Positions 1-42,086 are shown, numbered from the stretch's first letter. The stretch: DNA of 44,603 bases from Candidatus Effluviviaceae Genus IV sp. (GCA_014728245.1 WJLY01000282.1:1-44603); one strand, 5' to 3'. Translations and numbers: made by a program. The notes: generated by a model from the letters alone, not told the origin.

Positions 1-324
1 GTCCTCTCTGTACCTGTCGACCACGGTGCCGCGCCAGAGCGGGACGCCGGCTATGTGCGCGCCCCTTGCAAGCGCGTGGCTGCCCGTCGGCGACGTCCAC
101 AGCACGAAGATGGCCGCGAGGAGGGCCTTCACGCCGATCGCCGACCACCCGCTGTGCACGAGAACGCCGACCAGGATCAGGCACGTCCCCAGCGTCACGC
201 ACTTGGTCGCCGCCTGGAGCCTGTTGTACACGTCGGGAAGGCGGATCAGGCCGATCGCTCCGACGATGTCGAAGAAGACCCCGATCGATATGAGTATGTA
301 CGGTGCGATTCCGCCGCTATTCAT
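1..324 (-). CDS. mrpG: Mrp/Mnh cation:proton antiporter subunit G (3' end runs off the window)
   Basis: Absent from the ORF track because it has no in-window stop. My translation from ATG at 322-324 (minus) reads MNSGGIAPYILISIGVFFDIVGAIGLIRLPDVYNRLQAATKCVTLGTC, a typical MnhG/PhaG N-terminus. The start overlaps the mrpF stop by 8 nt. Confidence 0.8.
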   Translation of the reverse strand, partial: MNSGGIAPYILISIGVFFDIVGAIGLIRLPDVYNRLQAATKCVTLGTCLILVGVLVHSGWSAIGVKALLAAIFVLWTSPTGSHALARGAHIAGVPLWRGTVVDRYRED

Positions 325-571
325 CGAACCCCCTCCCCTCCAGGTACTTCGCCAGAGCGAGCGTTCCGATGAAGGCCAGAAGCGCCCATGCGATCGCCAC
401 GTTGAGGTAGTAGTCCTTGCCGGTAATGACGCCGAAGACCCCGCATATCCCGACCACCATCACGCCGATCGTGTCGATCGCTACCGCCCTGTCGGGGGCC
501 GTCGGCCCCCGCGCCACCCGGAAGAGGCAGATGAATGTCCCGATAATCAGGAGCAGAAGGAACGTCTGCAT
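317..571 (-). CDS. mrpF: Mrp/Mnh antiporter subunit F
   Basis: 84-aa hydrophobic protein (MQTFLLLLIIGTF...AIDTIGVMVV...) of MnhF size and pattern. ATGA start/stop overlap with mrpE. Confidence 0.85.
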   Translation of the reverse strand: MQTFLLLLIIGTFICLFRVARGPTAPDRAVAIDTIGVMVVGICGVFGVITGKDYYLNVAIAWALLAFIGTLALAKYLEGRGFDE

Positions 572-1074
572 CAGTCGAAAACCCTCCTCAAGGTGTACTC
601 GAATCGCCCCGCTATGTCCCGGGTTATGGCCTCGGTGTCTCCGAGGTTCTCGTGGACGTTGATCCAGTGCACGTAGAGCCAGTCGTCGATGATGTCGACC
701 GTGAGCGTGCCCGGCGTAAGCGTGATCGAATTGGCGAGGAACGTCTTGGCCTCGTCAGTCTCGAGTGACGTCTTGACCTTGACGATGCCCGGCCGTATCG
801 GCATGTTCGGGTGGATCACGCGGTACAGCACGTCGAAGTTGGCGACCACGATCCAGAACGACAACGACACCAGGTGGACGAGCGCCCAGAACCACCGCAC
901 CGGGCTGAAGAGCCGTCCTATTCGCTTCGGCAGAAGGCCGGACAGGAGGAACGCGAAGATGACCGCGATGATCGCGCCGACGATCACGCCCTGCGCGTCC
1001 AGTGACCAGGTCAGAAGCAGCCACAGGACGAAGATGATAATGAGATCGAGGAGTCTCCGTTTCAATCGTTCCAT
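571..1074 (-). CDS. mrpE: Mrp/Mnh antiporter subunit E
   Basis: 167 aa with an N-terminal two-TM region followed by an MnhE-like soluble part (TLTPGTLTVDI...). SD GGTGGAGAG lies upstream of the ATG at 1072-1074. Confidence 0.8.
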   Translation of the reverse strand: MERLKRRLLDLIIIFVLWLLLTWSLDAQGVIVGAIIAVIFAFLLSGLLPKRIGRLFSPVRWFWALVHLVSLSFWIVVANFDVLYRVIHPNMPIRPGIVKVKTSLETDEAKTFLANSITLTPGTLTVDIIDDWLYVHWINVHENLGDTEAITRDIAGRFEYTLRRVFD

Positions 1075-1090
1075 CGCTGCTCTCCACCCC

Positions 1091-2635
1091 CTAACCGAGG
1101 ACCAGCTTCACGTATTCAGCGCTATTCAGGAGAACGTCTCTCGCGGGCCCGAGCATTCTCTCCCCGATGGCGGGCTGCGTCACTGCGAGAATACCGAACC
1201 CTACGCACACGACGGCCAGTAGCACGAGCGGTACGTACATCGCCGGGGACACCTCTCTGGCCTGCTCGACGCTACGCCCGACGTCTCCGAAGAGGACCGA
1301 CTTCTGTACCTTCACGTAGTAAACGAGCGTTACGAAGGCCATCGCTATCGCCACGGCGCCGATGCCGAAATGGCCCGCTCTAACCACGGCCACGATGATG
1401 ATGAGCTTGCTCCAGAACCCGCTGAAGGGCGGGACGCCGGCGATGGAGAGCGCGGCGAGGTTCGTCGTCGTCGCCGTTATCGGCATGCGCTCCTTGAGCC
1501 CGCCAAGCAGTTTCATGTCGCGCGTGCCGGTGGCCGACTGGATGGCTCCCGATGAGAGGAAGAGAAGCGACTTGAACGCCGCGTGGTTCACCAGATGGAA
1601 GAGCCCGCCGAAGATAGCCAGCGCGGCGAGCGTCGTCGATTCGCCCGTCGCGAGCACCCTCGCGCCCACGCCGAGCCCGAGCGTCACGTAGCCGATCTGA
1701 CCGATCGAGCTGTAGGCGAGGAGCCTCTTCAGGTCCCACTGGCCGACGGCGGCCAGCCCGCCCACGACTATGGAGAGAACCGAGAAGCCGATCATCGAGT
1801 TCGCGATGATGACCGACCCGGGCGAGGTGGCCGCGAACCCGAAGACGTTGAAGAAGACCCTGCATATCGCGTAGACGCCGAGGCTCTTGATGACCACGCC
1901 CGAGAGCATCGCCGAGATCGGCGCGGGCGCCGACGGGTGCGCGTCCGGCAGCCAGGCGTGGAACGGCACGAGCGCCGCCTTGAGCGAGAAGCCCATGAGG
2001 AAGAGCGCGGCGGCCAGCAGCAGAGCAGGGTTCATCTCGGTCCCGGCCCACTCGGCCGCGATCGTCCTCGACACGTCGGCCATGTTAAGCGAGCCGGTCA
2101 CCGCGTAGACGGTGCCCACGGCGAATAGGATCATCACCGAGGCCACGCTTCCCAGGATCAGGTACTTGAAGCCCGCCTCCAGCTCGTCGGCCTCGACTCC
2201 GAAAGCCACGAGCGCGTAGGACGCGACCGAGGCGATCTCGAGGAAGACGAACAGGTTGAAGAGGTCGCCCGACAGCACCACACCGTTCATCCCCGCCACC
2301 ATGAGCATGAAGAGCCCGTAGTATTTCGGAAGCCCGGTGTACTCCCGCATGTACTTGAGAGAGAAGATGATGCAGAGGAGGCCGATTACGTTGACGGCCA
2401 CCAGAAGGAGAACCGAGAGCCCGTCGGCGACGATCGCGATGCCCTTGGGCGCCGCCCAGCCGCCCATGTGGTGCACGACCGCGGGCGCGCCGATCGAAGC
2501 CAGCGCCATCACCGAGAGCGCCACCATGCTCAATGTCGACAGGACCTCTCCGCTCTTCTTCCACCAGAACCCGATCATCGGGATCAGGAACGCTGCACCG
2601 AGCGGGATCGCTACAAACAGAGGCACAAGGTTCAT
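1091..2635 (-). CDS. mrpD: Mrp subunit D / NuoN-NuoM family proton-conducting membrane subunit
   Basis: 514-aa polytopic protein with the NuoL/M/N-type core (AAL..MGFSLKAALVPFHAWLPDAH, FHLVNHAAFKSLLFL). Confidence 0.9.
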   Translation of the reverse strand: MNLVPLFVAIPLGAAFLIPMIGFWWKKSGEVLSTLSMVALSVMALASIGAPAVVHHMGGWAAPKGIAIVADGLSVLLLVAVNVIGLLCIIFSLKYMREYTGLPKYYGLFMLMVAGMNGVVLSGDLFNLFVFLEIASVASYALVAFGVEADELEAGFKYLILGSVASVMILFAVGTVYAVTGSLNMADVSRTIAAEWAGTEMNPALLLAAALFLMGFSLKAALVPFHAWLPDAHPSAPAPISAMLSGVVIKSLGVYAICRVFFNVFGFAATSPGSVIIANSMIGFSVLSIVVGGLAAVGQWDLKRLLAYSSIGQIGYVTLGLGVGARVLATGESTTLAALAIFGGLFHLVNHAAFKSLLFLSSGAIQSATGTRDMKLLGGLKERMPITATTTNLAALSIAGVPPFSGFWSKLIIIVAVVRAGHFGIGAVAIAMAFVTLVYYVKVQKSVLFGDVGRSVEQAREVSPAMYVPLVLLAVVCVGFGILAVTQPAIGERMLGPARDVLLNSAEYVKLVLG

Positions 2636-2638
2636 CGG

Positions 2639-2986
2639 CTATCCCCTCAGCTTGCTGATATGTGACATGTCGAAGGTCCCGTGCTTCTCGTAGAGCCTTA
2701 TGCACATCGACACCATGAGCGCCAGAACCCCGAGCCCGATCACGATCGACGTGAGCACGAGGGCCTGCGGCAGCGGGTCGACGAACCGCTCGAGTGCGGT
2801 CTCCCCCATCCCGGGCTCGACGATCGGCGCGACGCCTCCCGTCTTGTAGCCCACGATTATCAGATAGAGGTTGACGGCATATTCCATGATCACGATGCCG
2901 ATCACCTTCTTGACGATGTTCTTCTTCGCAACGAGGCAGTAGAGCCCCATCGTGAGCAGAACCACGCACAGGAAATAGACCGTCAT
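2639..2986 (-). CDS. mrpC: Mrp subunit C / NuoK-like
   Basis: 115-aa three-TM protein (MTVYFLCVVLLTMGLYCLVAKKNIVKKVIG...) typical of MnhC. ATGA overlap with the upstream gene. Confidence 0.85.
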   Translation of the reverse strand: MTVYFLCVVLLTMGLYCLVAKKNIVKKVIGIVIMEYAVNLYLIIVGYKTGGVAPIVEPGMGETALERFVDPLPQALVLTSIVIGLGVLALMVSMCIRLYEKHGTFDMSHISKLRG

Positions 2987-3438
2987 GATAGCTCATCCTC
3001 GATCATGGACCTGAAGGAACGTCTGCGGAAGACCGCCAGCGCCGCGAAGACGATGAAGAGCGACGTGCCGACCTTGAAAGCGATGGCTATGTTCGCCGGG
3101 AGTATCATGCCGGAACTTAAGAGCCGGAACTGATCGCCCCGTCCGAACACGTTCAGGAAGAAATACCCCCCCGCGAGCCCGATCCAACCGATGAGCAGGA
3201 AGGCGAGCGCCCCCGCCGAATCGAGGACGTGCCCCATCCTCTCCCCTAGCCGCGAGAAGGCCACCTCCTTGCCGTGCCCCAGCATGAGCAGGATGAACGC
3301 GCACGCGACTATGACGCCTCCGGCGAACCCTCCCCCCGGTGTCAGGTGCCCGTAGAGGACGATGTACGCGCCGAAGATGACGATGAAGGCCACGACGAAA
3401 TCGGTGATGGTCTTGACGATGACTGTCAGTCCCTTCAT
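2983..3438 (-). CDS. mrpB: Mrp subunit B (MnhB domain)
   Basis: 151-aa membrane protein with the MnhB-like motif (GHLTPGGGFAGGVI). ATGA overlap on both sides. Confidence 0.8.
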   Translation of the reverse strand: MKGLTVIVKTITDFVVAFIVIFGAYIVLYGHLTPGGGFAGGVIVACAFILLMLGHGKEVAFSRLGERMGHVLDSAGALAFLLIGWIGLAGGYFFLNVFGRGDQFRLLSSGMILPANIAIAFKVGTSLFIVFAALAVFRRRSFRSMIEDELS

Positions 3439-3995
3439 GCGGGCACCACCTCCTCCTTCTTCGCGACCTTGCCGTCCTTGCGGAGGATCGCGAGGGCCCC
3501 GAGTATCGAGCCGAAGAGAACCGTCGCCTCCCCCAGCGTGTCGTAGGCCCTGTAGTCCAGGATCACCGACGTCACGATGTTGGCCGCGTGCGTCTCAGGA
3601 AGCCCCCTCATCACGTACACCCTGGACACGTTCATCAGCGGCTCGCCGAACTCCGGGAAGCCGCGGCTGCCGAAGATCATCGCCCCGAAGCCGAGGATCA
3701 GGCCGAAGAAGATGAGCGACACGATCACGGCCAGGGTGTCCCGGTGCAGCTCCACCGCCGTGTTGTCGAGGAGGATCGTCCCTCGGATCAGGATGATCAG
3801 CACGAGAATCTCGACCACGAGCTGAGTGATCGCTATGTCGGGCGCGCCCAGGAACAGGAAGGCGACCGACAGCGCGAACCCCACCGCGCTGACCGAGATA
3901 ACGGCCGACAGGAGGTTCCTGGTCTCGATGGCCACGATCGAACCGATGACCATGAAGACCAGAAGCGTGTACAACTGAGGGGTGATGTTTTCCAT
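3435..3995 (-). CDS. DUF4040 / MrpA C-terminal-like membrane subunit
   Basis: 186 aa. It resembles the C-terminal extension of MrpA and the MbhD/E-like subunits (LSAVISVSAVGFALSVAFLFLGAPDIAITQLVVE). Its position between the NuoL-like gene and mrpB fits a split MrpA. Confidence 0.75.
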   Translation of the reverse strand: MENITPQLYTLLVFMVIGSIVAIETRNLLSAVISVSAVGFALSVAFLFLGAPDIAITQLVVEILVLIILIRGTILLDNTAVELHRDTLAVIVSLIFFGLILGFGAMIFGSRGFPEFGEPLMNVSRVYVMRGLPETHAANIVTSVILDYRAYDTLGEATVLFGSILGALAILRKDGKVAKKEEVVPA

Positions 3996-4065
3996 CTAGC
4001 GTCTCCCGCCTGTTGCCAGCTCTATTCCGAAAAAGCGAAAGTCGGCGTCCGAACAGCGGTTGCCT

Positions 4066-5958
4066 CTATTGCATGTTCACAAGCTGCCTCAAAAGCGTGC
4101 TCAGAAGCGCGAACACCACGACGCCGAGGCCTATGACGGCCCACGACAGATACGTGGAGAGCACTCCGTTGTGAAGCATCCGGATGCCCTGGACGATGCC
4201 GTTGCCTATTCTGCCGCCGATCTCATATACGTCGAACACGCGTTGCTCCGCGTTCGCGAAGAGCCCCGACAGGCCCCTGGTCTCCCTGATCGTGTTGTAG
4301 AACCCGGTTCCCGAAACGTGCATCGAGTCGAGATTCGTGGGGGGCCTGGTGCCGCCTATGAACACTCGGCCGGTGCGCATCTTCGACATCTTCGCCGCCA
4401 GGAAGAGCAGGAAGCCGACGGCCAGGCCCAGCAGAATGAGGCCCGTGGCGATACTCGGGCTGAACGAGCCTATGCCCAGCTCGATGCCGCCCGAGGCCGA
4501 CGTCCCGACGGCCCCGTGGACGACCGGATTGATGAAGCGCTCGAGCGGGAAGACCGCGTAGACGCCGAACACGACGCACAGAAGAGCCAGGACGATCATC
4601 GGGACCTGCATGGCCCAGGGCACCTCGCGAACGTGCGAGAGCTTGCTGGGAAGCTGGCCCAGGAAGCCGGAGTAGAGCACCTTCACGAACGAAGCCAGCG
4701 TCAGCGCGCTCCCGAAGAAGGCCGCCACGAGGAAGATCCAGTAGGACGCCACGCCCCTCGAGCCCAGCTCGACGAGCCCCGAGTAGACCATCCACTTCGA
4801 GACGAAGCCGTTCAGCGGCGGCACGCCGGAGATCGACAGCGCGAAGACGGCCGTCGCGATGAAGGTGACCGGCATCGCCCTCGCCAGGCCTCCGAGGTTC
4901 TTGATCTCCGTCGTACCGGCCTGCTTCTCCAGAGATCCCGCGGAGAGGAACAGGCCGGACTTGTATATCGCGTTGTTCAGCATGTGGAAGAGGCCGCCGG
5001 CGATCGCTATCGGTATGCCGGTGCCTATGCCCAGGATCATATAGCCGACCTGGCTGACGGCGTGGTACGAGAGCAACACCTTCAGGTCGTGCTGAACGAG
5101 CGCCATGAGAACGGCGCCAATGATCGTGACGGCTCCTATGATCATGAGGAGGAGCATGATCCCCTGGCCGACACTGAAGAGGTCGAGGCTGATCCTGGCC
5201 AGGAGGTAGATGCCCAGAAGCTTGTCTATCGCCGCGGGCAAGAGCGCCATGACCGGCGTCGGCGCGCCCTTGGCGGCGGCGGGAATCCACGTGTGGAACG
5301 GCATCGCGCCGGCCTTCGTGATGGCGCCGACCATGAGAAGTATGTAGATCCATGTCGTCATACCGTCGCCGACGAATATCGAGAGCTCGTCCATGCTGAC
5401 GGTGCCGAACCGCGCCCAGATCATGGCCACGCCTATGAAGAGCGCCGCGTCGGAGAGCCCCAGCATGACGAAGCTCTTCGCCGCCCCCTCTGAGGCGTCG
5501 AGCTTCTTCAGGCCGGTGTTGACGTACACGTACAGTATGGCGGTCAGGGCCTCCCAGAAGAGCAGGAGGATGACGAGGCTGTTGGCGAGCGCCGCGCCGA
5601 TGCTGGCGGCCACCGTCCAGAGCATGAACGCATAGAAGCGGCGGCCGTCGTGCTCCCGCGAAAGCCAGGAAATGGAGTAGAGCCCCACACCGAACCCGAA
5701 GAGCGCGACGAAGACGACGATGAACGCGCTGAACTGGGTGAGCATGAGATCGAACTGGATCGTCAGGTCACCCAGCGTGCCCCAGTCCTTCACGTACGAA
5801 AGCGGCCACTGGCCGAACAGGCGGAACGCGGCCACGAGAGTCCACGCGAGCGCTATCAGGCTCACCGCCTCCCTGACTCCCCTGACCCTTCTGGGGATCA
5901 GAAGGCAGAGGCCGCCGGCCACGGCCGGCACAACTATCGGTACGAGCAACTGTGGCAT
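4066..5958 (-). CDS. NuoL/HycC/MrpA-N family antiporter-like membrane subunit
   Basis: 630-aa polytopic protein with the NuoL-family core (GAITKAGAMPFHTWIPAAAKGAPTPV, FHMLNNAIYKSGLFLSAG). Strong SD GGGGGAGAAAGAG precedes the ATG. Confidence 0.9.
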   Translation of the reverse strand: MPQLLVPIVVPAVAGGLCLLIPRRVRGVREAVSLIALAWTLVAAFRLFGQWPLSYVKDWGTLGDLTIQFDLMLTQFSAFIVVFVALFGFGVGLYSISWLSREHDGRRFYAFMLWTVAASIGAALANSLVILLLFWEALTAILYVYVNTGLKKLDASEGAAKSFVMLGLSDAALFIGVAMIWARFGTVSMDELSIFVGDGMTTWIYILLMVGAITKAGAMPFHTWIPAAAKGAPTPVMALLPAAIDKLLGIYLLARISLDLFSVGQGIMLLLMIIGAVTIIGAVLMALVQHDLKVLLSYHAVSQVGYMILGIGTGIPIAIAGGLFHMLNNAIYKSGLFLSAGSLEKQAGTTEIKNLGGLARAMPVTFIATAVFALSISGVPPLNGFVSKWMVYSGLVELGSRGVASYWIFLVAAFFGSALTLASFVKVLYSGFLGQLPSKLSHVREVPWAMQVPMIVLALLCVVFGVYAVFPLERFINPVVHGAVGTSASGGIELGIGSFSPSIATGLILLGLAVGFLLFLAAKMSKMRTGRVFIGGTRPPTNLDSMHVSGTGFYNTIRETRGLSGLFANAEQRVFDVYEIGGRIGNGIVQGIRMLHNGVLSTYLSWAVIGLGVVVFALLSTLLRQLVNMQ

Positions 5959-5997
5959 CTCTTTCTCCCCCGCGGACTAGGAGCGAAAGCTCCCCAT

Positions 5998-7170
5998 TCA
6001 GGAGCCTTTCCTGAGCTCTTCGGTCTTCGCGTGTGACAGGGCGATAAGGTCCTTGGACCCGAGCGCCCGGCGGCCGTCGGGCCCGAGCACGGCCATCCGC
6101 TCCGTGCAGCTGTAGCACGGGTCGATGATGGCGAAGATCAGCACGGCGTCCGAGATCGACTCGCCCTTCACGCGCGGCCTGTACGACGGAATGTTGTTGA
6201 ACGTCGGCGCCCTCATCTTGTGGCGCTCCGGCATGTTGGTGCCGTTCGATCTTATGAAGTGGAAGCACTCGCCTCGCGGCGCCTCGACGTGCCCTACGCC
6301 CTCGCCCCGCGGTATCTCGCGGACCTCGTTCGCGATGGGCCCGCCGGGCAGCCTCTCGATGCACTGCTTGATGATCTTGACCGACTCCAGCATCTCCAGA
6401 AGCCGCACCGCCGCGACGGCGAGGCAATCGCCCTCGGGCCGAACGATCACGTCCCAGTCGACCTCCGAGTAGGCCCCGTAGGGCTCGTCGCGCCGCACGT
6501 CGATGTCGAAGCCCGATCCTCTCGCCGTCGGACCGAGCGTCCCGTAGCGGATCGCGTCCTCCTTCGTGAGGAGTCCGACGCCCTTCAGCCGTCCCAGGAT
6601 GACCGGATCGTCGAGGATCGCGTGGAGCAGCATCTCGGTCTGCGCCGCGAACTCGTCCATCCGCTTCAGGACGACGGGCCAGACCTCGTCGGCCACGTCG
6701 CGTCTGACGCCCCCCGGACGATACCACGCGTAGTGGTTGCGGTTGCCGGTGATCGCCTCGAGACTGTCGAGCACCGGCTCGCGGTACTTCCAGCCCCACA
6801 TGAATACCGTCCAGTACCCGAGGATGTGCCCCCCGAGGCCGACCCACAGCATGTGGCTGTGGAGCCGCTCGAGCTCGTGGACGATCGTCCGGAGGTACCG
6901 GGCGCGGTCGGTCGGGCCGATCCCGGCGATGTCCTCCATCGCGCGGCATGCGGCCCAGCTGTGCGAGGCGGAGCAGATGCCGCAGATCCGCTCCACCAGG
7001 AAGCAGTCCTGGTCGTAGGTCTTTTCCTGCGCCAGAAGCTCCATGCCTCTGTGGATGCGGCCGAGATCTATGTCAGCATCCTCGACGGTCTCGCCGTCGA
7101 CGTACAGCGAGATGTACTCCGGTTCCTCGAGGACGGGATGGAAAGGTCCGATCGGTATGAGCGTGCTCAT
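5998..7170 (-). CDS. group-4 (energy-converting) [NiFe]-hydrogenase large subunit, NuoD family
   Basis: 390 aa. The N-terminal Ni-Fe ligand motif RICGICSASH is verified in DNA at 6961-6990. The C-terminal motif DPCYSCTER is verified at 6097-6123 and is followed by a 32-aa tail. Confidence 0.9.
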   Translation of the reverse strand: MSTLIPIGPFHPVLEEPEYISLYVDGETVEDADIDLGRIHRGMELLAQEKTYDQDCFLVERICGICSASHSWAACRAMEDIAGIGPTDRARYLRTIVHELERLHSHMLWVGLGGHILGYWTVFMWGWKYREPVLDSLEAITGNRNHYAWYRPGGVRRDVADEVWPVVLKRMDEFAAQTEMLLHAILDDPVILGRLKGVGLLTKEDAIRYGTLGPTARGSGFDIDVRRDEPYGAYSEVDWDVIVRPEGDCLAVAAVRLLEMLESVKIIKQCIERLPGGPIANEVREIPRGEGVGHVEAPRGECFHFIRSNGTNMPERHKMRAPTFNNIPSYRPRVKGESISDAVLIFAIIDPCYSCTERMAVLGPDGRRALGSKDLIALSHAKTEELRKGS

Positions 7171-7599
7171 CTACTCATCCCTCCTCATGGCGTGGAAGTC
7201 GGCGGGCCGGTCGTGCGACGAGAGCAGTTTCCTCGGATCCGGATGGTCGATGAACTCCACTCCGAGAAAGTCGAAGATCTCCCGCTCGATGAAGTCGGCC
7301 GCCGGGTAGTACTTGGTCAGGGACTCGATCTTCGGGAACGGCTTGTCGAGCGTCGTCCTGATGTTGACCACCGTGCCGTCCCGGTCGATGCAGAAGTGGT
7401 ACAGAAGCTCCACGCCGGTGCTCCTGTCGCTCCCCGTCGCCGTCGCCAGCCTCCCGCCCGCCTCTTCATACATATGTCTCGTTACGGGGATCCAGTCGTC
7501 GTTCGAGACGGTGACGTACGCCCTCCTGTCGGTCCGCTCGACGATGTCGACCCTGTCCCCGAACTTGGCCTTCAGTTCCTGCAGAACTTGCTTACTCAT
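7171..7599 (-). CDS. NuoC/MbhK-like hydrogenase subunit
   Basis: NuoC-type C-terminus (ADFIEREIFDFLGVEFIDHPDPRKLL). I chose the internal ATG (MSKQVLQELKAKFG) because it follows SD GGGAGA and avoids overlap with the upstream gene. The track ORF extends to 7665. Confidence 0.85.
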   Translation of the reverse strand: MSKQVLQELKAKFGDRVDIVERTDRRAYVTVSNDDWIPVTRHMYEEAGGRLATATGSDRSTGVELLYHFCIDRDGTVVNIRTTLDKPFPKIESLTKYYPAADFIEREIFDFLGVEFIDHPDPRKLLSSHDRPADFHAMRRDE

Positions 7600-7651
7600 T
7601 ACCCCGTCTCTCCCGTTCCACGGAGCGGCGCCCTGCCGCGCGAATCCACCC

Positions 7652-8065
7652 CTATAGCTTCCCAATGAGCTTGACGATGCCGTCTATTATGGCCTCGGGC
7701 CTCGGGGGACAACCGGGAATGTAGGCGTCGACCGGTATGTGCTTGTCGACCGGCCCGGCGAAGTTGTAGCCGTCCTTGAAGATCCCGCCGGTCAGCGCGC
7801 ACGCGCCCAGCGCCACGACGGCCACAGGCCTTGGAGCCTGCTCGTACGCCTCCAGCAGCTGAGGCACGACCTTGCGCGTAACGATTCCCGAAACCAGGAG
7901 CACGTCCGCGTGCTTGACGCTCCCGACGAGCTTGATGCCGAACCGCTCCACGTCGAATCGAGGACACAGGCAGTCCAGAACCTCGATGTCGCAGTTGTTG
8001 CAGGCCCCCGCGTTCAGGTGGAAGACCCACAGCGACTTCTTGAATCCCCATTTCGTTGCGCCCAT
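7652..8065 (-). CDS. NuoB/HycG/MbhJ-like hydrogenase small subunit ([4Fe-4S] N2-type)
   Basis: 137 aa with GACNNCDIE ... ALGACALTGG ... IPGCPPRPEAI, the Cys pattern of group-4 small subunits. Confidence 0.9.
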   Translation of the reverse strand: MGATKWGFKKSLWVFHLNAGACNNCDIEVLDCLCPRFDVERFGIKLVGSVKHADVLLVSGIVTRKVVPQLLEAYEQAPRPVAVVALGACALTGGIFKDGYNFAGPVDKHIPVDAYIPGCPPRPEAIIDGIVKLIGKL

Positions 8066-8116
8066 TCGTCCCTCACTCCGTTCGGTCCGGAACCCTGCGC
8101 CCGCCGGCGCCCGCTC

Positions 8117-9055
8117 TTACAGCCCGGCCAGCGCCAGGATGATCCCGATGATCGCGAGCACCGTGACGGGTCCCCAGAAGAACCGCACCGCCTGGTCTAT
8201 TCTCACCCTCGGATTGGTGTTCTTGATGAGTATGGCGATGGTCACGATCAAGACGTACTTGACGATCGTATAGAGTAGGCCCCACCCGGTGAACTGAAGC
8301 CCTCCCCAGAAGAGCGTTATGAAGAGGACGGGAAGCGTGAACAGCATCATCGCCTGCGTCAGCTTCACGACTCCCAGTATGGGCCCCGAGTACTCCATGT
8401 GCGTCCCGTCCATCAGCTCGGTCTCCGCTTCCGGGATGTCGAACGGCGGGTACGTGAGCTTCGCCTGCATGCAGAGGACCGCAACGATGAAGGCGATTAT
8501 GCAGGACGGATGGCCGAGAAGGACGCCGTTCGCCGCCTGGTGCTCAAGTATGGCCTCGAGCTTCAGCGACATCGGCGACACCTTGGACACGGCCGTGAAG
8601 ATCGCGATGACGAACGGAAGCTCGTATGCCAGGATGAGCTTCATCTCGCGGGAGGCGCCCACGCTGGCCAGCGGGTTGGATGAAGCCGAGGCGCCGATGA
8701 TCATCCCGATCGAGGGTATGGTGAGAAGGTAGATGACCGCGATCAGGTCCCCGACGAAGCCTACTCCCTGCATGTTGGCCAGCCATAGCATCATCGACAC
8801 CACCGTCACCGCGGCCAGGCCGGCCATCGGCGCCAGCAGGAACCCCGTCCTCTTGGCGCCCTCGGGAATCACGATCTCCTTGCCCAAGAGCTTCAGGATG
8901 TCGGCGAAAGGCTGGTACCACGGAGGGCCCACGCGCCACTGGACCCTGGCGGACACCTTCCTGTCCACCCAGGTCGTGAGCAGCCCGACGACCGCGGTGA
9001 ACAGGAGCCCGGGGAATATCAGGAAGTAGATAAACATGTTCAGTGTCGATGCCAT
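8117..9055 (-). CDS. NuoH/HycD/MbhM-like membrane subunit
   Basis: 312-aa polytopic protein with a NuoH-like N-terminal part (VDRKVSARVQWRVGPPWYQPFADILKLLGKE). Confidence 0.9.
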   Translation of the reverse strand: MASTLNMFIYFLIFPGLLFTAVVGLLTTWVDRKVSARVQWRVGPPWYQPFADILKLLGKEIVIPEGAKRTGFLLAPMAGLAAVTVVSMMLWLANMQGVGFVGDLIAVIYLLTIPSIGMIIGASASSNPLASVGASREMKLILAYELPFVIAIFTAVSKVSPMSLKLEAILEHQAANGVLLGHPSCIIAFIVAVLCMQAKLTYPPFDIPEAETELMDGTHMEYSGPILGVVKLTQAMMLFTLPVLFITLFWGGLQFTGWGLLYTIVKYVLIVTIAILIKNTNPRVRIDQAVRFFWGPVTVLAIIGIILALAGL

Positions 9056-9104
9056 CCTGTTACCTCTCCATTGGAGTCCGTTCCGCGTGCGCAGAAGCGT
9101 GAGT

Positions 9105-9587
9105 CTAGCGCTTGCGGCGCACGGTCTTCTCCACGGTGCGGGCGCCCCTCATGGGCTTCCCCTGCTGGTCTTCGATGTCGCTTATGTCCTCGAACGTGCG
9201 AGCGCCCGACACGCAAGTCCCCGCGCACATCGTGTCCTTCCCCTCAAGCGTCCGGAAGTAGCAGAGGTCGCACTTGGGGTACGTGTGGCGCGTGTTGACG
9301 AGGTCTATGGCGCCGAAAGGACAGGCCTGGGCGCACGAGGTGCACGCGCTGCACTTCAGGTTGCTCCTTATCACCAGCCCGTCGTCCCGCCTCTTGATCG
9401 CCTCCTGAGGACACGCCGCCTCACAGAGCGCCTGCTCGCAGTGCCGGCAGTTCATTTGCAGAACGGTGTTCGTCAGGACCGTCGACGCCTCCAGATAGTC
9501 CTGCTGGTTATGCGAGTAGAAGCAGGCGGCGATACAGCTCCTGCAACTGATGCAGCGTCCGTAGTCGAGGATGTTTCTCTTGTTCAT
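9105..9587 (-). CDS. HycB-like polyferredoxin (four Cys-cluster motifs)
   Basis: 160 aa with four Cys groups: CISCRSCIAAC, CRHCEQALCEAACP, CSACTSCAQACP and CDLC...CAGTC. SD GGGGGAG precedes the ATG. Confidence 0.85.
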   Translation of the reverse strand: MNKRNILDYGRCISCRSCIAACFYSHNQQDYLEASTVLTNTVLQMNCRHCEQALCEAACPQEAIKRRDDGLVIRSNLKCSACTSCAQACPFGAIDLVNTRHTYPKCDLCYFRTLEGKDTMCAGTCVSGARTFEDISDIEDQQGKPMRGARTVEKTVRRKR

Positions 9588-9644
9588 CCAGCTCCCCCGG
9601 AGTTGCTCGTCGCGGGCGGCGCCCCGGCGGCCGCCGCCTGAGTG

Positions 9645-11336
9645 CTAGCCTTCTGTAGTTACCTTCGCTCCCCTCGAGGACACGTCGAACCATCTGGTCT
9701 CCGGGTTCGGTGTCCACGTGAGAAGCCCTCGCGCGTCCGGCACGAAACTGGGTATCGCCACCAGCATGCCGGGCATCCTGTCGGTCACTGTCGCGAGGAT
9801 CTTCGTCTCTCCGCGGTCCGTGCCGACGGTGACGCTCGCGCCCTGTTCGATGTCGAGGCTCTCGGCGGCCTCCTCCCCGACCCATATCTCGCAGTAGGGG
9901 GACTGCTGCTGCGCGAAGGCCATTCGTCCGGTTATCGTGCCGTCCCACCTGTGCATCGGGTTCGTCTTCTCGACGAGCGTCACGCCCTCGGCGCCCGAGG
10001 CGCCGGCCAGCCTCTTGAGCTCCGCGTCGACGTCGATCTCGAGCGGCGGATGCTCCGCCGCGGGTTCCCGGGTCGCGAGGTTGGCGCCGAGCTCCCGGGC
10101 GATGGCGCCCAGCATCTCCGAGACCGGCGTGGCGTCGCCCTGCGGGTCCTTCAGCGGCTCGATATTGGTCGTGATGGAAAGCGACGCGGAGTAGCTGCCG
10201 ACGAACTCGGTCCAGACCGACTGCGGAAGCCCGACGTCGCTGTGCTTGGTCGTGTCGTTCTCGAATATCGACGACGCGGCTAGAAGCTCCAGCCCCTCGA
10301 GCGTCTCGGCCGAGACCGCGCCCGGGTATAGCTGCACGAGATCGGGGCCGAAAACCAAAAGCCCCTTGATCTTCCCGGCCGCCACGTCCTTGAGCATCCC
10401 GGGCAACGTCCTTCCGGACCCTATCCTCCTGAAGGCGCCGATGGCGTTCCCGCCCCGGAAGAAGGGCGCGTACTTCCCGCCCACGGCCGCGGCCAGCGCC
10501 GATGCGAGCTTGCCCGTGAGATACCCGGCAGCCGAATCGCCCAGTCTCGATGACACGAGCACGACGACCTTCTCGTGCTCCTTGATGTTCCTGGCGATGC
10601 TCGAGAGCTCGGCCTCCGGCATGCCGGCCGCCTCCGCGGCTTCCGAAACGGAGATCGCGGGGGCGCCCTTCGCGTTCAGCGCCGAAAGAATGCCGGCCAG
10701 GACGACCGGCTCGGCGCCGGGCGCCGTCGCGATGTGCCTGTCGGCGAACCAATCGGTGTTCGTGCGGAACGGGTTCACCGTGTAGATCCGGTTCGAGCGC
10801 GATCTGTGGCGGGCCTCTATGATCCGCTTCGCCAGACACGGGTGCCCCCAGAAGACGTCACCTATCATCACGAAGCAGTCGGCGTCGTCGAGATCCTCCG
10901 GTGTCGCGTCGCCGGCCCCTCCGCCCATGAGCTGAGGCAGGTCGTTGCCGTCGTAAGCGACGGCCACGTTCCTGGTGCCGAGCGCGTCCGCGGCGAAGGC
11001 CGCGACCGCGTCGTAGTCCTCGTTCGAAAGCTCCGTGCCGACGACTACGCCGATGGCGTCACCGCCCGCACCCTCCTTCAGTTCGGAGATCTTGCCCGCG
11101 GTCCTGTTCACGCCGCTCGCCCACGTCACCCTGCGCCTGTTCACCGTGGCAGCGATGAACCTCCTGGGATGCTGGAGCAATTCTATGTTGTAGTGACCTC
11201 GGACGCAGAGCGATCCGAGATTCTGCCTGGCGTCCTTGTCGAGATCGATCCTCACGGGGACGCCCGCGTCCATCTCCATGCCGTATCCGCACTGGAGAGA
11301 GCAGAAGAGACACGACGCCTTCTTTATCTCTGGCAT
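9645..11336 (-). CDS. molybdopterin-oxidoreductase (MopB) family protein, formate-dehydrogenase-like but short and apparently lacking the Sec/Cys-His active-site pair
   Basis: 563 aa. N-terminal CX2CX3C...C [4Fe-4S] motif (CLFCSLQC...CVRG). MopB core (DADCFVMIGDVFWGHP). C-terminal beta-barrel-like end (ASVTVGTDRGETKILATVTDRMPGMLVAIP). Confidence 0.8.
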   Translation of the reverse strand: MPEIKKASCLFCSLQCGYGMEMDAGVPVRIDLDKDARQNLGSLCVRGHYNIELLQHPRRFIAATVNRRRVTWASGVNRTAGKISELKEGAGGDAIGVVVGTELSNEDYDAVAAFAADALGTRNVAVAYDGNDLPQLMGGGAGDATPEDLDDADCFVMIGDVFWGHPCLAKRIIEARHRSRSNRIYTVNPFRTNTDWFADRHIATAPGAEPVVLAGILSALNAKGAPAISVSEAAEAAGMPEAELSSIARNIKEHEKVVVLVSSRLGDSAAGYLTGKLASALAAAVGGKYAPFFRGGNAIGAFRRIGSGRTLPGMLKDVAAGKIKGLLVFGPDLVQLYPGAVSAETLEGLELLAASSIFENDTTKHSDVGLPQSVWTEFVGSYSASLSITTNIEPLKDPQGDATPVSEMLGAIARELGANLATREPAAEHPPLEIDVDAELKRLAGASGAEGVTLVEKTNPMHRWDGTITGRMAFAQQQSPYCEIWVGEEAAESLDIEQGASVTVGTDRGETKILATVTDRMPGMLVAIPSFVPDARGLLTWTPNPETRWFDVSSRGAKVTTEG

Positions 11337-11409
11337 GTCGGCTAACCTCTCGCGCGAGACAGGACCGGAACGGACCTCAGACCCCTCGGCCCGCTCCCCC
11401 AGTCACTGA

Positions 11410-12255
11410 CTAGAACGGATCTTCGAACTTCTCGATCTGCTTCGCGGTCATGACGGGACCGTCCATACAGACGAAGTACTCCCCCAGCATGCAGTGGCCG
11501 CACTTGCCAAGACCGCAGCTCATGTTGCGCTCCATCGAAAGATAGATATTGGAGGGGTCGAAGCCCTTCTCCAGGAGAACCATGTTCACGAACTTGAGCA
11601 TGATGGGCGGCCCGCACGCGCAGGCCACCGCGTTCTCGGCGGTGAACGGCAGCTTGTCGACGTCGACCGTGGTCAGAAGCGGCAGATCGTCCAGGAGCAC
11701 CGTCACGACGCCGACCTTCCCGCTCCATTCCGGATGCGGCTCGTCGATCGTCAGGAGCACCTCGGTGTTCTTCTTCTTTTCCCACACCGGGAGCAGGTCC
11801 CTGTAGACGATGTCGTCCGGCGTTCTCGCGCCGTACCGGATCGAGACCTTCTTGTACTTGTCTATGTCGTCGAAGAGGGCGAGGATGAGAGAGCGCAGAG
11901 GCGCCAGGCCGACGCCGCCGCCGACTATGAGGATCTCCTTCCCCTCGAAGTCCTTCATGTTGTAGCCGTTGCCGTAAGGGCCGCGGATCCCCACGGTGTC
12001 GCCCACCTTCATCTGCTCGAGGGCCTCCGTCACCATGCCGACCCGCATAATCGTGATCTCGAGCGTGTCCTTCACGTTGGGATTCGAAGACGGTGTGAAG
12101 GGCGCCTCCCCTACTCCGGGGACGGTAAGCTCGACGAACTGGCCCGCCTCGAACGTCACCGGCTCCTTGGGCCGGAACCGGTACGTCGTGATGTTCGGAG
12201 TCTCCTTCTTTATGTCCTCGATCACGCTCTCGATAGGCCTGTACAGGTTCTTCAT
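11410..12255 (-). CDS. FAD/NAD(P)-binding [2Fe-2S] oxidoreductase subunit (HydG / AsrB / PyrK family)
   Basis: Starts at MKNLYRPIESV, with an ATGA overlap on the upstream stop. Dinucleotide-binding ILIVGGGVGLAPL. C-terminal CGLGKCGHCMLGEYFVCMDGP [2Fe-2S] motif. The track ORF start at 12333 is rejected. Confidence 0.85.
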   Translation of the reverse strand: MKNLYRPIESVIEDIKKETPNITTYRFRPKEPVTFEAGQFVELTVPGVGEAPFTPSSNPNVKDTLEITIMRVGMVTEALEQMKVGDTVGIRGPYGNGYNMKDFEGKEILIVGGGVGLAPLRSLILALFDDIDKYKKVSIRYGARTPDDIVYRDLLPVWEKKKNTEVLLTIDEPHPEWSGKVGVVTVLLDDLPLLTTVDVDKLPFTAENAVACACGPPIMLKFVNMVLLEKGFDPSNIYLSMERNMSCGLGKCGHCMLGEYFVCMDGPVMTAKQIEKFEDPF

Positions 12256-13328
12256 GCTTCCGCCTTCTCCGTGGTGAGAACGTGCCTCATCGCTTCGCGC
12301 ATGTCTATCCGGCCCATGCATACGTCTATGCATCTCCCGCAGCCGGTGCAGGTTACGAGTCCGTACCTGTCGCGCGTGTACTCGAACTTGCAGCGCAGCC
12401 TGTGCTCAAGCCGCTGGGGCAGCTCGGGGCGGGCGTTGCCTCCGCCGCCTGTTCTCGCGTATCCGATCGACAGGCAGGTGTCCCAGTTCCTCGTCCGCTC
12501 GTACGCGCCGTCGGACTGCTGGTCGACCAGAAGGAAGCACGTGCACGTCGGGCAGCACCGATTGCACGCCGAGCACGCCACGCAGTTCTGCGTCGCGTAG
12601 GCCCACGCCTCCTTCGTGCCCTCGAGATCAAGCTTGTCGTAGGAACTCTCTATCTCGTCAAAGAACTCCGCGTTCTGCCGGTCGATCGCCTCGGTCACCG
12701 ACCTCCGCCGCTTGTCGCGCGCCTCCAGGTGCTCGGGCAACGCGTCCGTCACGAGGTCGTCATTCCCAGACATCAGTTTCTCGCCCTTCTCCGAGCCGAC
12801 GGTCAGGATGTAGCCGCCGTCGATGGGCGATACGTTGAGGTCGAAGCCCTCGGTCGGCCAGGGTTGGCCGCCGACCTTCGTGCAGAAGCACGTCTCCTTC
12901 GCGAAGGAGCAATCGACCGACACGATGAAGAGGTTCTTCCTCTTCTCGACGATGAACGGATCGTCATACTCCTCGGTGAAGTGCTCGGTGCTCCAGTAGA
13001 CCTTGTCGAACTTCCGGAGGCCCCTGAGGTCGCAGCTCCTGGGGCCGACGATCACCGTCTCCGGCGCCTCGACGTCGGCATCGGATTCTCCCGACGGGTA
13101 CTTCGCGACGACCTCTCTGGGGTAGAAGATGAAGGACTTCGGGTTGGTGGCCAGCGCCGCGCCCTCCAGGGTCATGTTCTCGGGAACCTCGTCGCCGACC
13201 TGCTCGTAATCCGGCGTCTCCTCGTGGTTCATGATGTCGAACTTGGCCGGAACGTAGACCCTGTGGTCCTTCGCCCACCGTCCGATCAGCTTCAAGAGGT
13301 TCTCTCGTCCGATGAAGACTTCTCTCAT
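12252..13328 (-). CDS. Fe-S subunit of the HydB (sulfhydrogenase beta) / AsrA family
   Basis: Starts at MREVFIGRENLL, with SD GAGAGGA 8 nt upstream. Cys clusters CVACSACNRCCPTCTCF and CTGCGRCIDVC. First gene of the operon. Confidence 0.8.
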   Translation of the reverse strand: MREVFIGRENLLKLIGRWAKDHRVYVPAKFDIMNHEETPDYEQVGDEVPENMTLEGAALATNPKSFIFYPREVVAKYPSGESDADVEAPETVIVGPRSCDLRGLRKFDKVYWSTEHFTEEYDDPFIVEKRKNLFIVSVDCSFAKETCFCTKVGGQPWPTEGFDLNVSPIDGGYILTVGSEKGEKLMSGNDDLVTDALPEHLEARDKRRRSVTEAIDRQNAEFFDEIESSYDKLDLEGTKEAWAYATQNCVACSACNRCCPTCTCFLLVDQQSDGAYERTRNWDTCLSIGYARTGGGGNARPELPQRLEHRLRCKFEYTRDRYGLVTCTGCGRCIDVCMGRIDMREAMRHVLTTEKAEA

Positions 13329-13570
13329 CGTGGCTGTCCTCTCAGTCGTGTTGACATGGCGCTGAAACGTCCCCCCCCGGCCACCGCTCCGCAACCGCCC
13401 GTTCAGGAGCAGGCGCCCGCGCCGGGCCTATTGCGCGCGAACCCCGCACCGTTCCCCAATCTCTGAGGAGCGGACCCGGGGTCAGGCCTTCTGCCGCGCT
13501 GGGTTCTAAAGGCGTCCCGCCCAGGCCTGCAAGTAACACTCAGCTCCTTCACTGATTGCCCTCGCGGGTC

Positions 13571-13612
13571 GAACGAAACCCCGACCCCCGGAAGATGGCA
13601 CCGGGTCGGGGA
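13571..13612 (-). terminator. putative rho-independent terminator downstream of hflK
   Basis: On the minus strand: CCCCGACCCGG-loop-CCGGGGGTCGGGG followed by TTTCGTT. It lies about 80 nt after the hflK stop and before the hydrogenase operon. Confidence 0.5.
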
Positions 13613-13692
13613 TTATGATCCGTAAGAGTCTATCGCCGGGACGGCGGCCGCGTCAAGCCAAAACCCGGGTTCACGGGCCGGTAGAGCGCGCG

Positions 13693-14745
13693 TCACTCGT
13701 TCGGAGTCAGGAACCTGAGGTCGAGCGTGCTGTCGCCTTCCCTGGGATCGAGCACGTACTTGCGTACGTTCTCCAGCACCTTCTCGAGCGCCTCGAGATA
13801 GAGACGCTCCCTGGTCGCCGTGGGGGCGTTCCGGTACTCGGCGAACACTGCCGTGAACCTGGCCGCCTCGCCCTCCGCCCGGGCGACCTTCTCGGAACCG
13901 TAGCCCTCCGCGGACTCAACGAGACCGGCCGCCTCGCCGCGGGCCGTCGGGACGACCCGGTTAAGATACCCCTCGGCTTCCTGCACGATCCTGTTGCGAT
14001 CCTCGCGCGCGCTCGCCACCTCGCGAAAGGCGTCCGCGACCTCGCGGGGAGGATTGGTCTCCTGAAGGTGCGCCGCCACTATCTCTATCCCCGCGCCGTA
14101 GCGATCGAGCACGCGCTGCGCGCGTTCCTTGACAGTCGTCGCGATCTCAACCCTAGCTGTCGTCAGGACGTCCTCGACCGGCATCGTCCCGACCTTCTCC
14201 GTCAGGACCGACTCGCCCACCTTCCTCACCAGCCAGTGAGGTTCCTCGCATGCGAACAGGAAGTCCGTCGGGGACTTGACGACATACTGGATCAGAAGCT
14301 GGATCTCCATGATATTCTCGTCGCCCGTCACGAACTGAGCCTCGCGGGCCTCTGGGCTGATCCCGCGGAGCCGGTCGACGATCTTGTACCCCACGCTCAT
14401 CCTCTTGATCGAGGTCACCTGCGGCGTGTCGACCGCATCGACAGGCCACGGGATGCGGTAGTGGATCCCCGGCGCGACCGATTCCCGGACGACGCGGCCG
14501 AACCTGCGCACCACTCCGCGCTCGTCCGGCTGTACGACGTAGATGCCCGAGAGGAGGTACATCGCGACGACCGCCAGCGCCGCGAGCCTGGAGATGCCAC
14601 GGAGCCTTCGGAGTCCCTCCGACATGTCGGACTTGACCGACGTCGTCGCGGCCCTGCGGCTCCTCGACTCATCGTCGCGGCGGACGGGCTCTTCGCCTTC
14701 GGGACCCGCGTCCGGGTCGCTGTTTCTGCGCTCGGGCTCTTCCAC
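13693..14745 (-). CDS. hflK: HflK-type SPFH/band-7 protein
   Basis: 350 aa (GTG start in the track; a later ATG is possible). Single TM then an SPFH domain (GIYVVQPDERGVVRRFGR...FVTGDENIMEIQLLIQY...ARGEAAG...AEGEAARF). Confidence 0.85.
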   Translation of the reverse strand: MEEPERRNSDPDAGPEGEEPVRRDDESRSRRAATTSVKSDMSEGLRRLRGISRLAALAVVAMYLLSGIYVVQPDERGVVRRFGRVVRESVAPGIHYRIPWPVDAVDTPQVTSIKRMSVGYKIVDRLRGISPEAREAQFVTGDENIMEIQLLIQYVVKSPTDFLFACEEPHWLVRKVGESVLTEKVGTMPVEDVLTTARVEIATTVKERAQRVLDRYGAGIEIVAAHLQETNPPREVADAFREVASAREDRNRIVQEAEGYLNRVVPTARGEAAGLVESAEGYGSEKVARAEGEAARFTAVFAEYRNAPTATRERLYLEALEKVLENVRKYVLDPREGDSTLDLRFLTPNE

Positions 14746-14750
14746 CTGGG

Positions 14751-15632: not shown

Positions 15633-15692
15633 AGTATGTCTCCGAAATCCCGGCCGCGCCGCGCCCCTTACGGGCAGGGCGTCCCGCGACCG

Positions 15693-17420: not shown

Positions 17421-17454
17421 CTCTTGCTTGCCGCCCCTGGAAGACGGTGTTCGT

Positions 17455-19881
<2,427 letters not shown>

Positions 19882-19900: not shown

Positions 19901-22630
<2,730 letters not shown>

Positions 22631-27366: not shown

Positions 27367-27504
27367 ATGAAGCGAACATATCAGCCGAAGAAGCGCAAGG
27401 CGAAGAGAAAGCACGGTTTCCTCCGTCGGAGCTCAACTCCCGGGGGAAGGAAGATACTTGCGCGGCGCCGCGCCAAGGGCAGGAAGCGGCTCACAACACG
27501 ATAG
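27367..27504 (+). CDS. rpmH: 50S ribosomal protein L34
   Basis: Too short for the ORF track. My translation is [45 protein letters not shown], followed by TAG. Confidence 0.95.
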
Positions 27505-40826: not shown

Positions 40827-40872
40827 CACGCGCGGCCGACGCGCGGAGAGAGTGAGCGCGCCGCGCCGATGA

Positions 40873-41382
<510 letters not shown>

Positions 41383-42074: not shown

Positions 42075-42086
42075 ACAGGGCCTTAA

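Follow-up and report, generated by a model that had tools for sequence, protein, structure and literature searches.

Contig WJLY01000282.1 (GCA_014728245.1), 44,603 nt long and here called the window (the whole stretch of DNA that was analysed), is an entire contig of a Candidatus Eisenbacteria metagenome-assembled genome (MAG) already deposited at NCBI, and its first 13,328 nt carry an operon for a Mrp-linked group 4 [NiFe] hydrogenase with additional redox subunits (Table 1). An earlier note, written from the sequence alone, had described about 16 co-directional and tightly packed genes at this position and had proposed as their product an ion-translocating membrane hydrogenase whose electrons are exchanged with NAD(P)(H) in place of, or beside, formate or ferredoxin. 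The layout proved to be as described: sixteen intact genes on the minus strand (the last of them, mrpG, cut only by the contig end) fill positions 1-13328, which are 97% coding, and the junctions between them run from -8 to +73 nt, including three ATGA overlaps (HydB/HydG, MbhDE/MnhB and MnhB/MnhC), one TGATG overlap and one direct abutment; hydG, mopB, hycB and nuoH are separated by gaps of 49-73 nt. All 16 genes start with ATG and have a purine-rich stretch resembling a ribosome-binding site on their 5' side. Since the gene lengths equal, nearly residue for residue, those of the 85%-identical homologous locus L001 (Eisenbacteria), none of the operon genes is a pseudogene. Pfam and NCBIfam searches of all subunits likewise agree with the domain content and gene order that the note had listed.

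Table 1. Coordinates of the operon genes and of the leader in front of them, in the order of transcription
Feature	Length	Position	Strand	Pfam match or remark
Leader between upstream SPFH gene and hydB	364 nt	13329..13692	-	probable promoter region
HydB/SHI-beta-like Fe-S subunit	358 aa	12252..13328	-	Fer4_22
HydG/SHI-gamma-like FAD/NAD(P)/[2Fe-2S] subunit	281 aa	11410..12255	-	FAD_binding_6, NAD_binding_1, DHODB_Fe-S_bind
Short MopB protein	563 aa	9645..11336	-	Molybdop_Fe4S4, Molybdopterin, Molydop_binding
HycB-like ferredoxin subunit, four Cys motifs (16 Cys)	160 aa	9105..9587	-	Fer4_11
NuoH/MbhM/HycD-type membrane anchor	312 aa	8117..9055	-	NADHdh, E 1.4e-66
NuoB-type hydrogenase small subunit	137 aa	7652..8065	-	Oxidored_q6, E 9e-32
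NuoC-type subunit	142 aa	7171..7599	-	Complex1_30kDa, E 1e-21
Group 4 [NiFe] large subunit	390 aa	5998..7170	-	Complex1_49kDa, NiFeSe_Hases
NuoL/MrpA-N-like antiporter subunit	630 aa	4066..5958	-	Proton_antipo_M, Proton_antipo_N
MbhD+MbhE (DUF4040) fusion	186 aa	3435..3995	-	MbhD, MbhE
MnhB-like	151 aa	2983..3438	-	MnhB
MnhC/NuoK-like	115 aa	2639..2986	-	Oxidored_q2
MnhD-like second antiporter subunit	514 aa	1091..2635	-	Proton_antipo_M
MnhE	167 aa	571..1074	-	MNHE
MnhF	84 aa	317..571	-	MrpF_PhaF
MnhG, cut by contig end	108 codons	1..324	-	PhaG_MnhG_YufB

A sulfhydrogenase-type gene pair linked to a group 4 core

The two genes that lead the operon had been taken for a sulfhydrogenase-type NAD(P)H module, and this assignment is borne out by full-length matches to a solved structure. 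The sole PDB match of the HydB-like protein is the beta subunit of Pyrococcus furiosus sulfhydrogenase I (SHI; 9nez_B, E 6.9e-35, residues 1-355), and the HydG-like protein matches the SHI gamma subunit over its full length (9nez_C, E 5.2e-49); beta and gamma together are the NADPH module of SHI (role as cited in PMC13582414). The cofactor motifs are strongly conserved: 14 Cys of the HydB-like protein are found in 100% of 62 relatives, and among 65 relatives of the HydG-like protein all four [2Fe-2S] Cys are kept in 100%, conservation of the FAD motif GEAPFTPSS reaches at least 90%, and for the largely conserved NAD(P) motifs GGGvGlAPlRsL and CGPPiM it is at least 90% in the core residues and at least 60% in the remainder. 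The NCBIfam scores of both proteins lie far under the SHI, Shy and Asr equivalog cut-offs, and we therefore regard HydB and HydG as diverged paralogues of that module and not as orthologues.

The catalytic core encoded downstream has the motifs of a group 4 [NiFe] enzyme. Both Ni-Fe ligand motifs of the large subunit, RICGICSASH and DPCYSCTER, are present and invariant in the alignment, and the CxxC...CxxC ligand pattern occurs in 84 of 84 large-subunit relatives; no selenocysteine (Sec) variant was found in the 84 loci. After DPCYSCTER the large subunit continues for 32 residues, a C-terminal extension of the kind cleaved off by HycI-type proteases. Its best PDB matches are MbhL (6cfw_L, E 2.5e-76) and HycE (7z0s_E, E 5e-70), and in a neighbour-joining tree it belongs to a clade that stands apart from both. 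Four Cys of the NuoB-type subunit are conserved in 100% of 79 relatives.

We then asked how widely this gene set is shared. Scanning one genome per species returned at least 600 pattern-matching stretches, 597 of which were confirmed as relatives, and the best 80 of these 597 were analysed, the loci being annotated by phmmer with the window proteins. Large subunits in these 80 genome loci, which share the synteny, are 54-92% identical to that of the window. The nearest large subunits are 80-97% identical, and the named ones among them belong to Eisenbacteria; next, at about 60%, come Margulisiibacteriota, Omnitrophota and WOR-1/Saganbacteria. Further carriers are found in Planctomycetota (Sedimentisphaerales, Pirellulales, Brocadiia), WOR-3, Fermentibacteria, Hydrogenedentota, Desantisbacteria, Sumerlaeota, Spirochaetota, Atribacterota, Dehalococcoidia and Anaerolineales. 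Caldithrix abyssi, checked as a possible cultured carrier, has no group 4 enzyme.

The linkage of the pair to the hydrogenase is practically universal. HydB, HydG and the HycB-like gene occur in the same order in all 51 loci that extend at least 6.5 kb upstream, across many phyla, and in a Saganbacteria locus (L087), whose large subunit is 60% identical to that of the window, the gene order is identical. The large subunit does not fall into a well-characterised subgroup with a known donor; its clade carries these accessory genes routinely and is yet uncharacterised. Particularly informative is L070, a Planctomycetales MAG, in which a complete group 3b sulfhydrogenase operon (beta, gamma, delta, alpha, protease; 410-4958) lies directly upstream of the group 4 operon. 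Although a 3b operon adjoins it, the group 4 operon keeps its own beta/gamma paralogues, which argues that the pair is a dedicated part of the membrane enzyme.

Two statements of the note on the membrane side required revision. The Mrp set had been called complete: all of its members are indeed present, but mrpG is truncated at the contig end, where, judged by the 110-aa MnhG homologue of L001, the sequence stops about two codons short of the stop codon. The NuoI/HycF/MbhN-type subunit had been called absent. However, among related loci whose sequence reaches at least 7.5 kb past the large subunit on the downstream side, 58 of 59 have a gene of about 200 aa with 2x[4Fe-4S] motifs directly following mrpG on its 3' side, and in 43 of these 59 loci hycI comes next. 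In L001 this gene (17367-17972) encodes a 201-aa 2x[4Fe-4S] protein that matches E. coli HycF (E 6.6e-18) and P. furiosus MbhN (E 1.2e-13) in the PDB and the formate-hydrogenlyase iron-sulfur subunit as its best NCBIfam model. Because the contig ends inside mrpG and the relatives carry a HycF-type gene at exactly this place, the missing NuoI-type subunit is an artefact of the contig edge.

The loci of relatives offered some further observations on this part of the operon. Beyond the two [4Fe-4S] motifs, the HycF/NuoI-type subunits of L001 and 65 relatives share four extra, 100%-conserved Cys (CxxC ... CxxC; positions 123, 126, 186, 189), which suggests an additional metal site. After hycI-hypA, the Margulisiibacteriota and Saganbacteria loci have genes for a small ferredoxin, a DUF1858 protein and a glutaredoxin-like protein (L002 18288-19163; L087 18206-18836), the small ferredoxin being a possible partner. 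The membrane arm itself is reduced in L054 (Dehalococcoidia; 6828-11564) to NuoL, a 99-aa MnhC-like protein and MnhD, with MbhDE and MnhB/E/F/G missing, and in L013 a 2.1-kb insertion (9082-11198) lies between nuoL and mbhDE.

MopB and the HycB-like subunit

The note had remarked that the MopB protein seems to lack its catalytic residues, and this turned out to hold for the whole family. When the window protein, 563 aa long as against 715 aa for E. coli FdhF, was aligned with FdhF, the four Cys of the FS0 [4Fe-4S] cluster were found to be kept, whereas U140-H141 is replaced by N-D in a stretch without any Cys or His. Extending the alignment to 14 family members from at least five phyla, we found the Sec/Cys140-His141 pair to be absent from 15 of 15 family MopBs and the FS0 Cys to be kept in 14 of them. 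Arg333 is possibly kept in the Eisenbacteria-type clade (FRGGN versus VRGQN, with the alignment shifted by one residue) and is not conserved elsewhere. The best NCBIfam match is Fdh-alpha (E 2.7e-40), far under the cut-off. An AlphaFold2 model (pLDDT 89, pTM 0.91) predicts the full four-domain MopB fold, and Foldseek places this model close to formate dehydrogenases, Nap and FdhH (TMq 0.80-0.85 at 18-19% identity) and somewhat less close to mycobacterial NuoG (0.71).

Regarding the place of MopB in the enzyme, the note had spoken of a non-canonical electron-input module, of which MopB, by its distribution, is not a defining part. MopB occurs in 14 loci altogether, and in no more than 9 of the 51 whose upstream sequence is long enough; it is absent from the other 42, whose operons are otherwise unchanged. 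It also has the lowest identity of all subunits: 61-71% within the clade, as compared with 81-92% for the large subunit, and 22-33% across phyla, as compared with 54-62% for the large subunit and 48-56% for HydG (compared across phyla only). In a neighbour-joining tree, the MopB-bearing lineages (WOR-3, Eisenbacteria, Anaerolineales, Dehalococcoidia, Margulisiibacteriota) are deep and paraphyletic to a big MopB-less crown, which, crude as the tree is, fits an ancestral MopB that was then lost repeatedly. Where MopB persists it can be diminished, as in Margulisiibacteriota and Saganbacteria, whose MopB is shortened (mostly 464-518 aa; 379 aa in L027) and devoid of the Molydop_binding domain. 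The same loci have an extra protein of 225-250 aa without Pfam match between the HycB-like gene and nuoH (L002 7507-8184; L087 7388-8140).

The HycB-like subunit, which finds HycB3 of the hydrogen-dependent CO2 reductase (E 4e-18), NrfC and the HycB of formate hydrogenlyase (FHL) in the PDB, appears to follow the fate of MopB. All 16 of its Cys are kept in 15 of 15 MopB-bearing loci, whereas in 17 of the 55 other loci two or three Cys are gone from the first motif, a loss seen in at least four separate clades (Fisher p=0.015, for loci that are not phylogenetically independent). Moreover, HycB identity to the window protein is 39-44% in distant MopB-bearing loci versus 25-27% in MopB-less ones, although large-subunit identity is equal in both sets. 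We infer from this pattern that MopB would dock on HycB via the first-motif cluster, as FdhF does in FHL, and that it would be a side branch and not part of the main wire.

Proposed electron route and rival readings

The composition described above has been encountered before. In 2019, Matheus Carnevali et al. reported an "enigmatic" group 4 [NiFe] hydrogenase in Saganbacteria RX5A, with relatives in Zixibacteria and Omnitrophica, whose set comprises Mrp-like subunits, a MopB that defied classification, genes resembling CooF, AsrA and AsrB, and a NuoI homologue, and for which the authors guessed an Mbh-like role (PMC6349859). A September 2026 paper found, in silico, that about half of the Fdh subunits in group 4b clusters are without Cys/Sec and that such clusters co-occur with SHI-gamma and SHI-beta homologues; it also found groups 4b and 4d to be paraphyletic and group 4g to be polyphyletic (PMC13582414). 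MAG papers label the Mrp-linked hydrogenases of Omnitrophota and Hydrogenedentota "group 4g, ferredoxin-coupled (putative)", so that the subgroup labels differ between 4g in the literature on the carrier phyla and 4b for clusters with the same accessory genes (PMC13582414). The note, which knew of no characterised complex of such composition, is right as far as biochemistry goes, but the composition itself had already been reported in silico. The operon is a further case of an architecture noticed in genome surveys, and the window adds no new kind of system. New here are the near-universal beta/gamma linkage, the minority status and fast evolution of MopB, the family-wide loss of its catalytic residues with FS0 kept, the joint loss of MopB and a HycB cluster, and the explanation of the missing NuoI.

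From the gene content and the conserved motifs, we consider it somewhat better than an even bet that the products form one complex, an NAD(P)H:H+ oxidoreductase whose reversible turnover is coupled to ion translocation and in which MopB is vestigial, a side branch resembling NuoG. In such a complex, NAD(P)H would be oxidised at the FAD of the HydG-like subunit, and electrons would pass from the HydG [2Fe-2S] cluster over the HydB-like Fe-S clusters, the HycB-like subunit, the HycF/NuoI-type subunit and the NuoB-type proximal cluster to the [NiFe] centre. As the HycB-like and HycF-type subunits both occur in the family, this route would be an FHL-like wire that has a nicotinamide-dependent flavoprotein at its tip where FHL has a formate dehydrogenase. 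Redox turnover would be coupled, as in MBH, a membrane-bound hydrogenase, and in MBS, to H+ or Na+ movement through the Mrp-derived arm with its two antiporter-like subunits. The Cys/Sec-less MopB would be a decayed formate-dehydrogenase relic with one [4Fe-4S] cluster, sitting as a side branch on HycB in the manner of the MopB-like domain of NuoG.

The direction of such an enzyme would be set by H2 pressure, NAD(P)H being disposed of as H2 when H2 is low, and being made while ions are pumped when H2 is high. By calculation from the standard potentials (-414 and -320 mV), the span between the H2 and NAD(P) couples is about 18 kJ/mol per two electrons, released in going from H2 to NAD(P)+ and of the same order as the 12 kJ/mol quoted for MBH. 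When calculated for about 10 Pa H2, the potential of the H+/H2 couple is raised to about -296 mV; oxidation of a reduced NADPH pool to H2 would then be exergonic, and the enzyme could therefore run either way. What the earlier note had proposed, an ion-translocating hydrogenase exchanging electrons with NAD(P)(H), is still the reading with the best support and gains from the SHI homology, the conserved motifs, the unbroken linkage and the non-canonical MopB; its NuoI and MopB parts needed correction.

A broader interpretation, to which we give slightly less than an even chance, is that the clade is the hydrogenase counterpart of complex I, its nicotinamide module having been recruited independently of NuoEF, and its Fdh subunit being seen at successive states: full-length but Cys-less, truncated, and lost along with one HycB cluster. 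If so, the "ferredoxin-coupled" and "formate-coupled" labels in many MAG studies would have the donor wrong, and a respiratory complex could let many uncultured fermenters regenerate NAD(P)+ from NAD(P)H with release of H2, without electron bifurcation. Should the NAD(P)H link itself be true, it would amount to a type of energy-converting hydrogenase new to biochemistry and present in many uncultured anaerobic lineages, Chloroflexota among them, whose redox balance and H2 production or consumption would have to be modelled differently, and it would be a present-day analogue of the step in the evolution of complex I that joined a flavoprotein module and a cofactor-less MopB domain to a hydrogenase-like core.

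Several points weigh against an NAD(P)H-dependent enzyme with a vestigial MopB. In the literature, we found neither a biochemically characterised NAD(P)H-dependent Mrp-type hydrogenase nor biochemistry on any member of the clade, and a preference for NADH or NADPH is not readable from the HydG sequence. Within the window, the NuoB, NuoC and NuoH partners are present and a NuoI-type gene is not observable; the HycF/NuoI-type subunit that the family retains is the ferredoxin entry of MBH, and a small ferredoxin gene lies near some loci. In MopB, an Asp occupies the His141 position in 13 of 15 proteins, and the Eisenbacteria-type clade conserves D129-G130-x-D132 and R294-G-G-N297 to at least 90%; such conserved residues of the former active site could reflect retained catalysis with another metal ligand. 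Finally, in AlphaFold3 models the Fe-S network branches three ways, to the large subunit, to SHI-gamma and to the Fdh-like protein, and bifurcation or confurcation with an unknown third substrate has been proposed on that basis (PMC13582414).

The points about ferredoxin lead to the most serious rival, namely a ferredoxin-dependent hydrogenase of the MBH type, as assumed for "group 4g", to which the beta/gamma module would merely add a second port. Among solved structures, MbhL matches the large subunit best, the NuoI/MbhN-type subunit is kept nearly throughout, Margulisiibacteriota and Saganbacteria loci have small ferredoxin genes downstream, and the Omnitrophota and Hydrogenedentota enzymes are annotated in this sense. 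However, HycB covers HycF in FHL, and as a HycB-like subunit occurs throughout this family, exposure of the distal NuoI cluster is improbable. Use of ferredoxin by the SHI beta/gamma module is not known, Pfam and NCBIfam searches of the operon proteins turned up no flavin module for bifurcation such as NfnB or HydABC, and the 4g label for this clade comes from literature on the carrier phyla. On balance, we think this reading unlikely.

Less probable still is a three-way machine in which a catalytic MopB with a non-Cys metal ligand (e.g., the conserved Asp) would couple H2, NAD(P)H and an unidentified substrate. It would account for the branched network of the AlphaFold3 models, for the predicted retention of the four-domain fold, for the conserved FS0 Cys and for the D-G-x-D and R-G-G-N residues. 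Against it, MopB is missing from 42 of 51 loci of the same clade, is shortened and devoid of Molydop_binding in Margulisiibacteriota and Saganbacteria, evolves faster than any other subunit, and conserves Arg333 in a single clade at most.

It seems very improbable that the first two to four genes constitute an independent soluble enzyme, for instance an AsrAB-like sulfite or sulfur reductase module, that merely adjoins the hydrogenase. The AsrA and AsrB models of NCBIfam are matched as well, and the 49-73 nt gaps between hydG, mopB, hycB and nuoH might be taken for boundaries; but no gene for an AsrC (siroheme) subunit exists in the window, the linkage holds in every suitable locus across phyla with the same order and strand, terminators show no excess over shuffles, and L070 maintains dedicated beta/gamma paralogues next to its separate 3b operon, so that we rejected a separate unit. 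A formate hydrogenlyase of the Thermococcus Fdh-Mfh-Mnh (4b) kind, with formate oxidation by MopB driving H2 evolution and Na+ export, is scarcely credible and was likewise rejected: the gene order from MopB over HycB and the hydrogenase to Mrp is similar, and Fdh-alpha is the best NCBIfam match of MopB, but the Sec/Cys-His pair is absent from every family MopB, most members have no MopB at all, and neither the genes of the window nor the neighbours in L001 include a formate transporter. Two further identities fit only in part. A group 3b sulfhydrogenase would have group 3 alpha and delta subunits, which are missing beside the beta/gamma pair, and the true 3b operon of L070 differs; an MBH (group 4d) is contradicted by the two Proton_antipo_M subunits and by the HycB-like, HydB, HydG and MopB proteins.

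Genomic surroundings and known counterparts

Beyond the operon, the leader in front of hydB contains a single sigma-70-like match (13656-13627; 9/12). Promoter and terminator counts over the whole region are not above those of shuffles and thus do not inform the operon boundaries, and neither Rfam (leader and window) nor a tRNA scan of the window returned a match. Directly upstream, at 13693-17420, lie three SPFH/Band-7 paralogues, the first of which, 575 aa long, carries a fused CDF cation-efflux domain; in L001 the operon has the same three genes in front of it. The following stretch, 17455-37624, is the neighbourhood of the chromosomal replication origin, with gyrA, gyrB, recF, dnaN and dnaA on the minus strand, rpmH (27367-27504), rnpA, yidD, yidC, jag, mnmE, mnmG, rsmG, parA and parB on the plus strand, and a switch in the sign of the GC skew at about 24-27 kb, which puts the hydrogenase operon about 13 kb from dnaA. 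In the gyrB open reading frame as called (19901-22351; 816 aa, TTG start), the ATPase domain begins only at residue ~211, and the true start is probably well downstream of the called TTG.

At the other end of the contig, a V/A-type ATPase operon (38829-44603) encodes subunit I, a 152-aa double-hairpin c/K subunit, subunit C/AC39 and the start of subunit A. The c subunit contains the residues TQ...Q...ET(Y), a putative counterpart of the Na+-binding signature of E. hirae NtpK; a Na+-type V/A-ATPase would, if this assignment is right, fit a Na+ economy beside a Mrp-type hydrogenase. In two Omnitrophota loci (L003/L004 400-5300), genes for FTCD_C (cyclohydrolase-type), FolD, MTHFR and pterin-binding domain proteins directly precede the operon. 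They may represent the Wood-Ljungdahl methyl branch, and an enzyme supplying NAD(P)H from H2 would suit such a setting.

Among known systems, the closest are the Saganbacteria RX5A type and the clusters of the 2026 study, which have the same set of AsrA/HydB-, AsrB/HydG- and CooF/HycB-like proteins, MopB, NuoH/B/C/D/I and an antiporter or Mrp arm. Compared with the Saganbacteria type, the window has a longer MopB that keeps Molydop_binding, and it is missing the 225-250-aa protein. The reduced arm of L054 fits the 11-12-gene description in PMC13582414, whose sequences may belong to the same clade.

P. furiosus MBH (group 4d) and MBS resemble the window complex in the large subunit, in the Mrp-derived arm (MbhD/E, MnhB-G) and in the NuoB/C/D/H/I-type module. 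MBH has 14 subunits, of which just one is antiporter-like and none is an additional peripheral redox protein, and its ferredoxin electrons enter at MbhN; the window complex, in contrast, would have two antiporter-like subunits, as in MBS, plus the HycB-like, HydB, HydG and MopB proteins. With E. coli FHL (4a) and Thermococcus Fdh-Mfh-Mnh (4b) it shares the MopB-HycB-HycF-small-large subunit wire, and like FHL it shows a HycE-like C-terminal extension, with a HycI protease gene in most relatives. The order MopB-HycB-hydrogenase-Mrp is also reportedly similar to that of the Thermococcus cluster. In contrast to these systems, its MopB is without Sec/Cys-His and often absent from the family, a flavoprotein module is added, and a full Mrp arm takes the place of HycC/D.

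Soluble P. furiosus SHI (3b, 9nez) is alike in its beta and gamma subunits, which are homologous over their full length and have all cofactor motifs, but its group 3 alpha/delta catalytic pair is replaced here by a membrane-bound group 4 module of the NuoD/NuoB type. Complex I, finally, is alike in concept, with a nicotinamide flavoprotein module and a cofactor-less MopB relic placed on a NuoB/C/D/H/I/L core. The two differ in their flavoprotein, which here is of the FNR/PyrK type (HydG, with FAD) and not NuoF (with FMN), and in their active site, which is a [NiFe] centre here and a quinone pocket in complex I.

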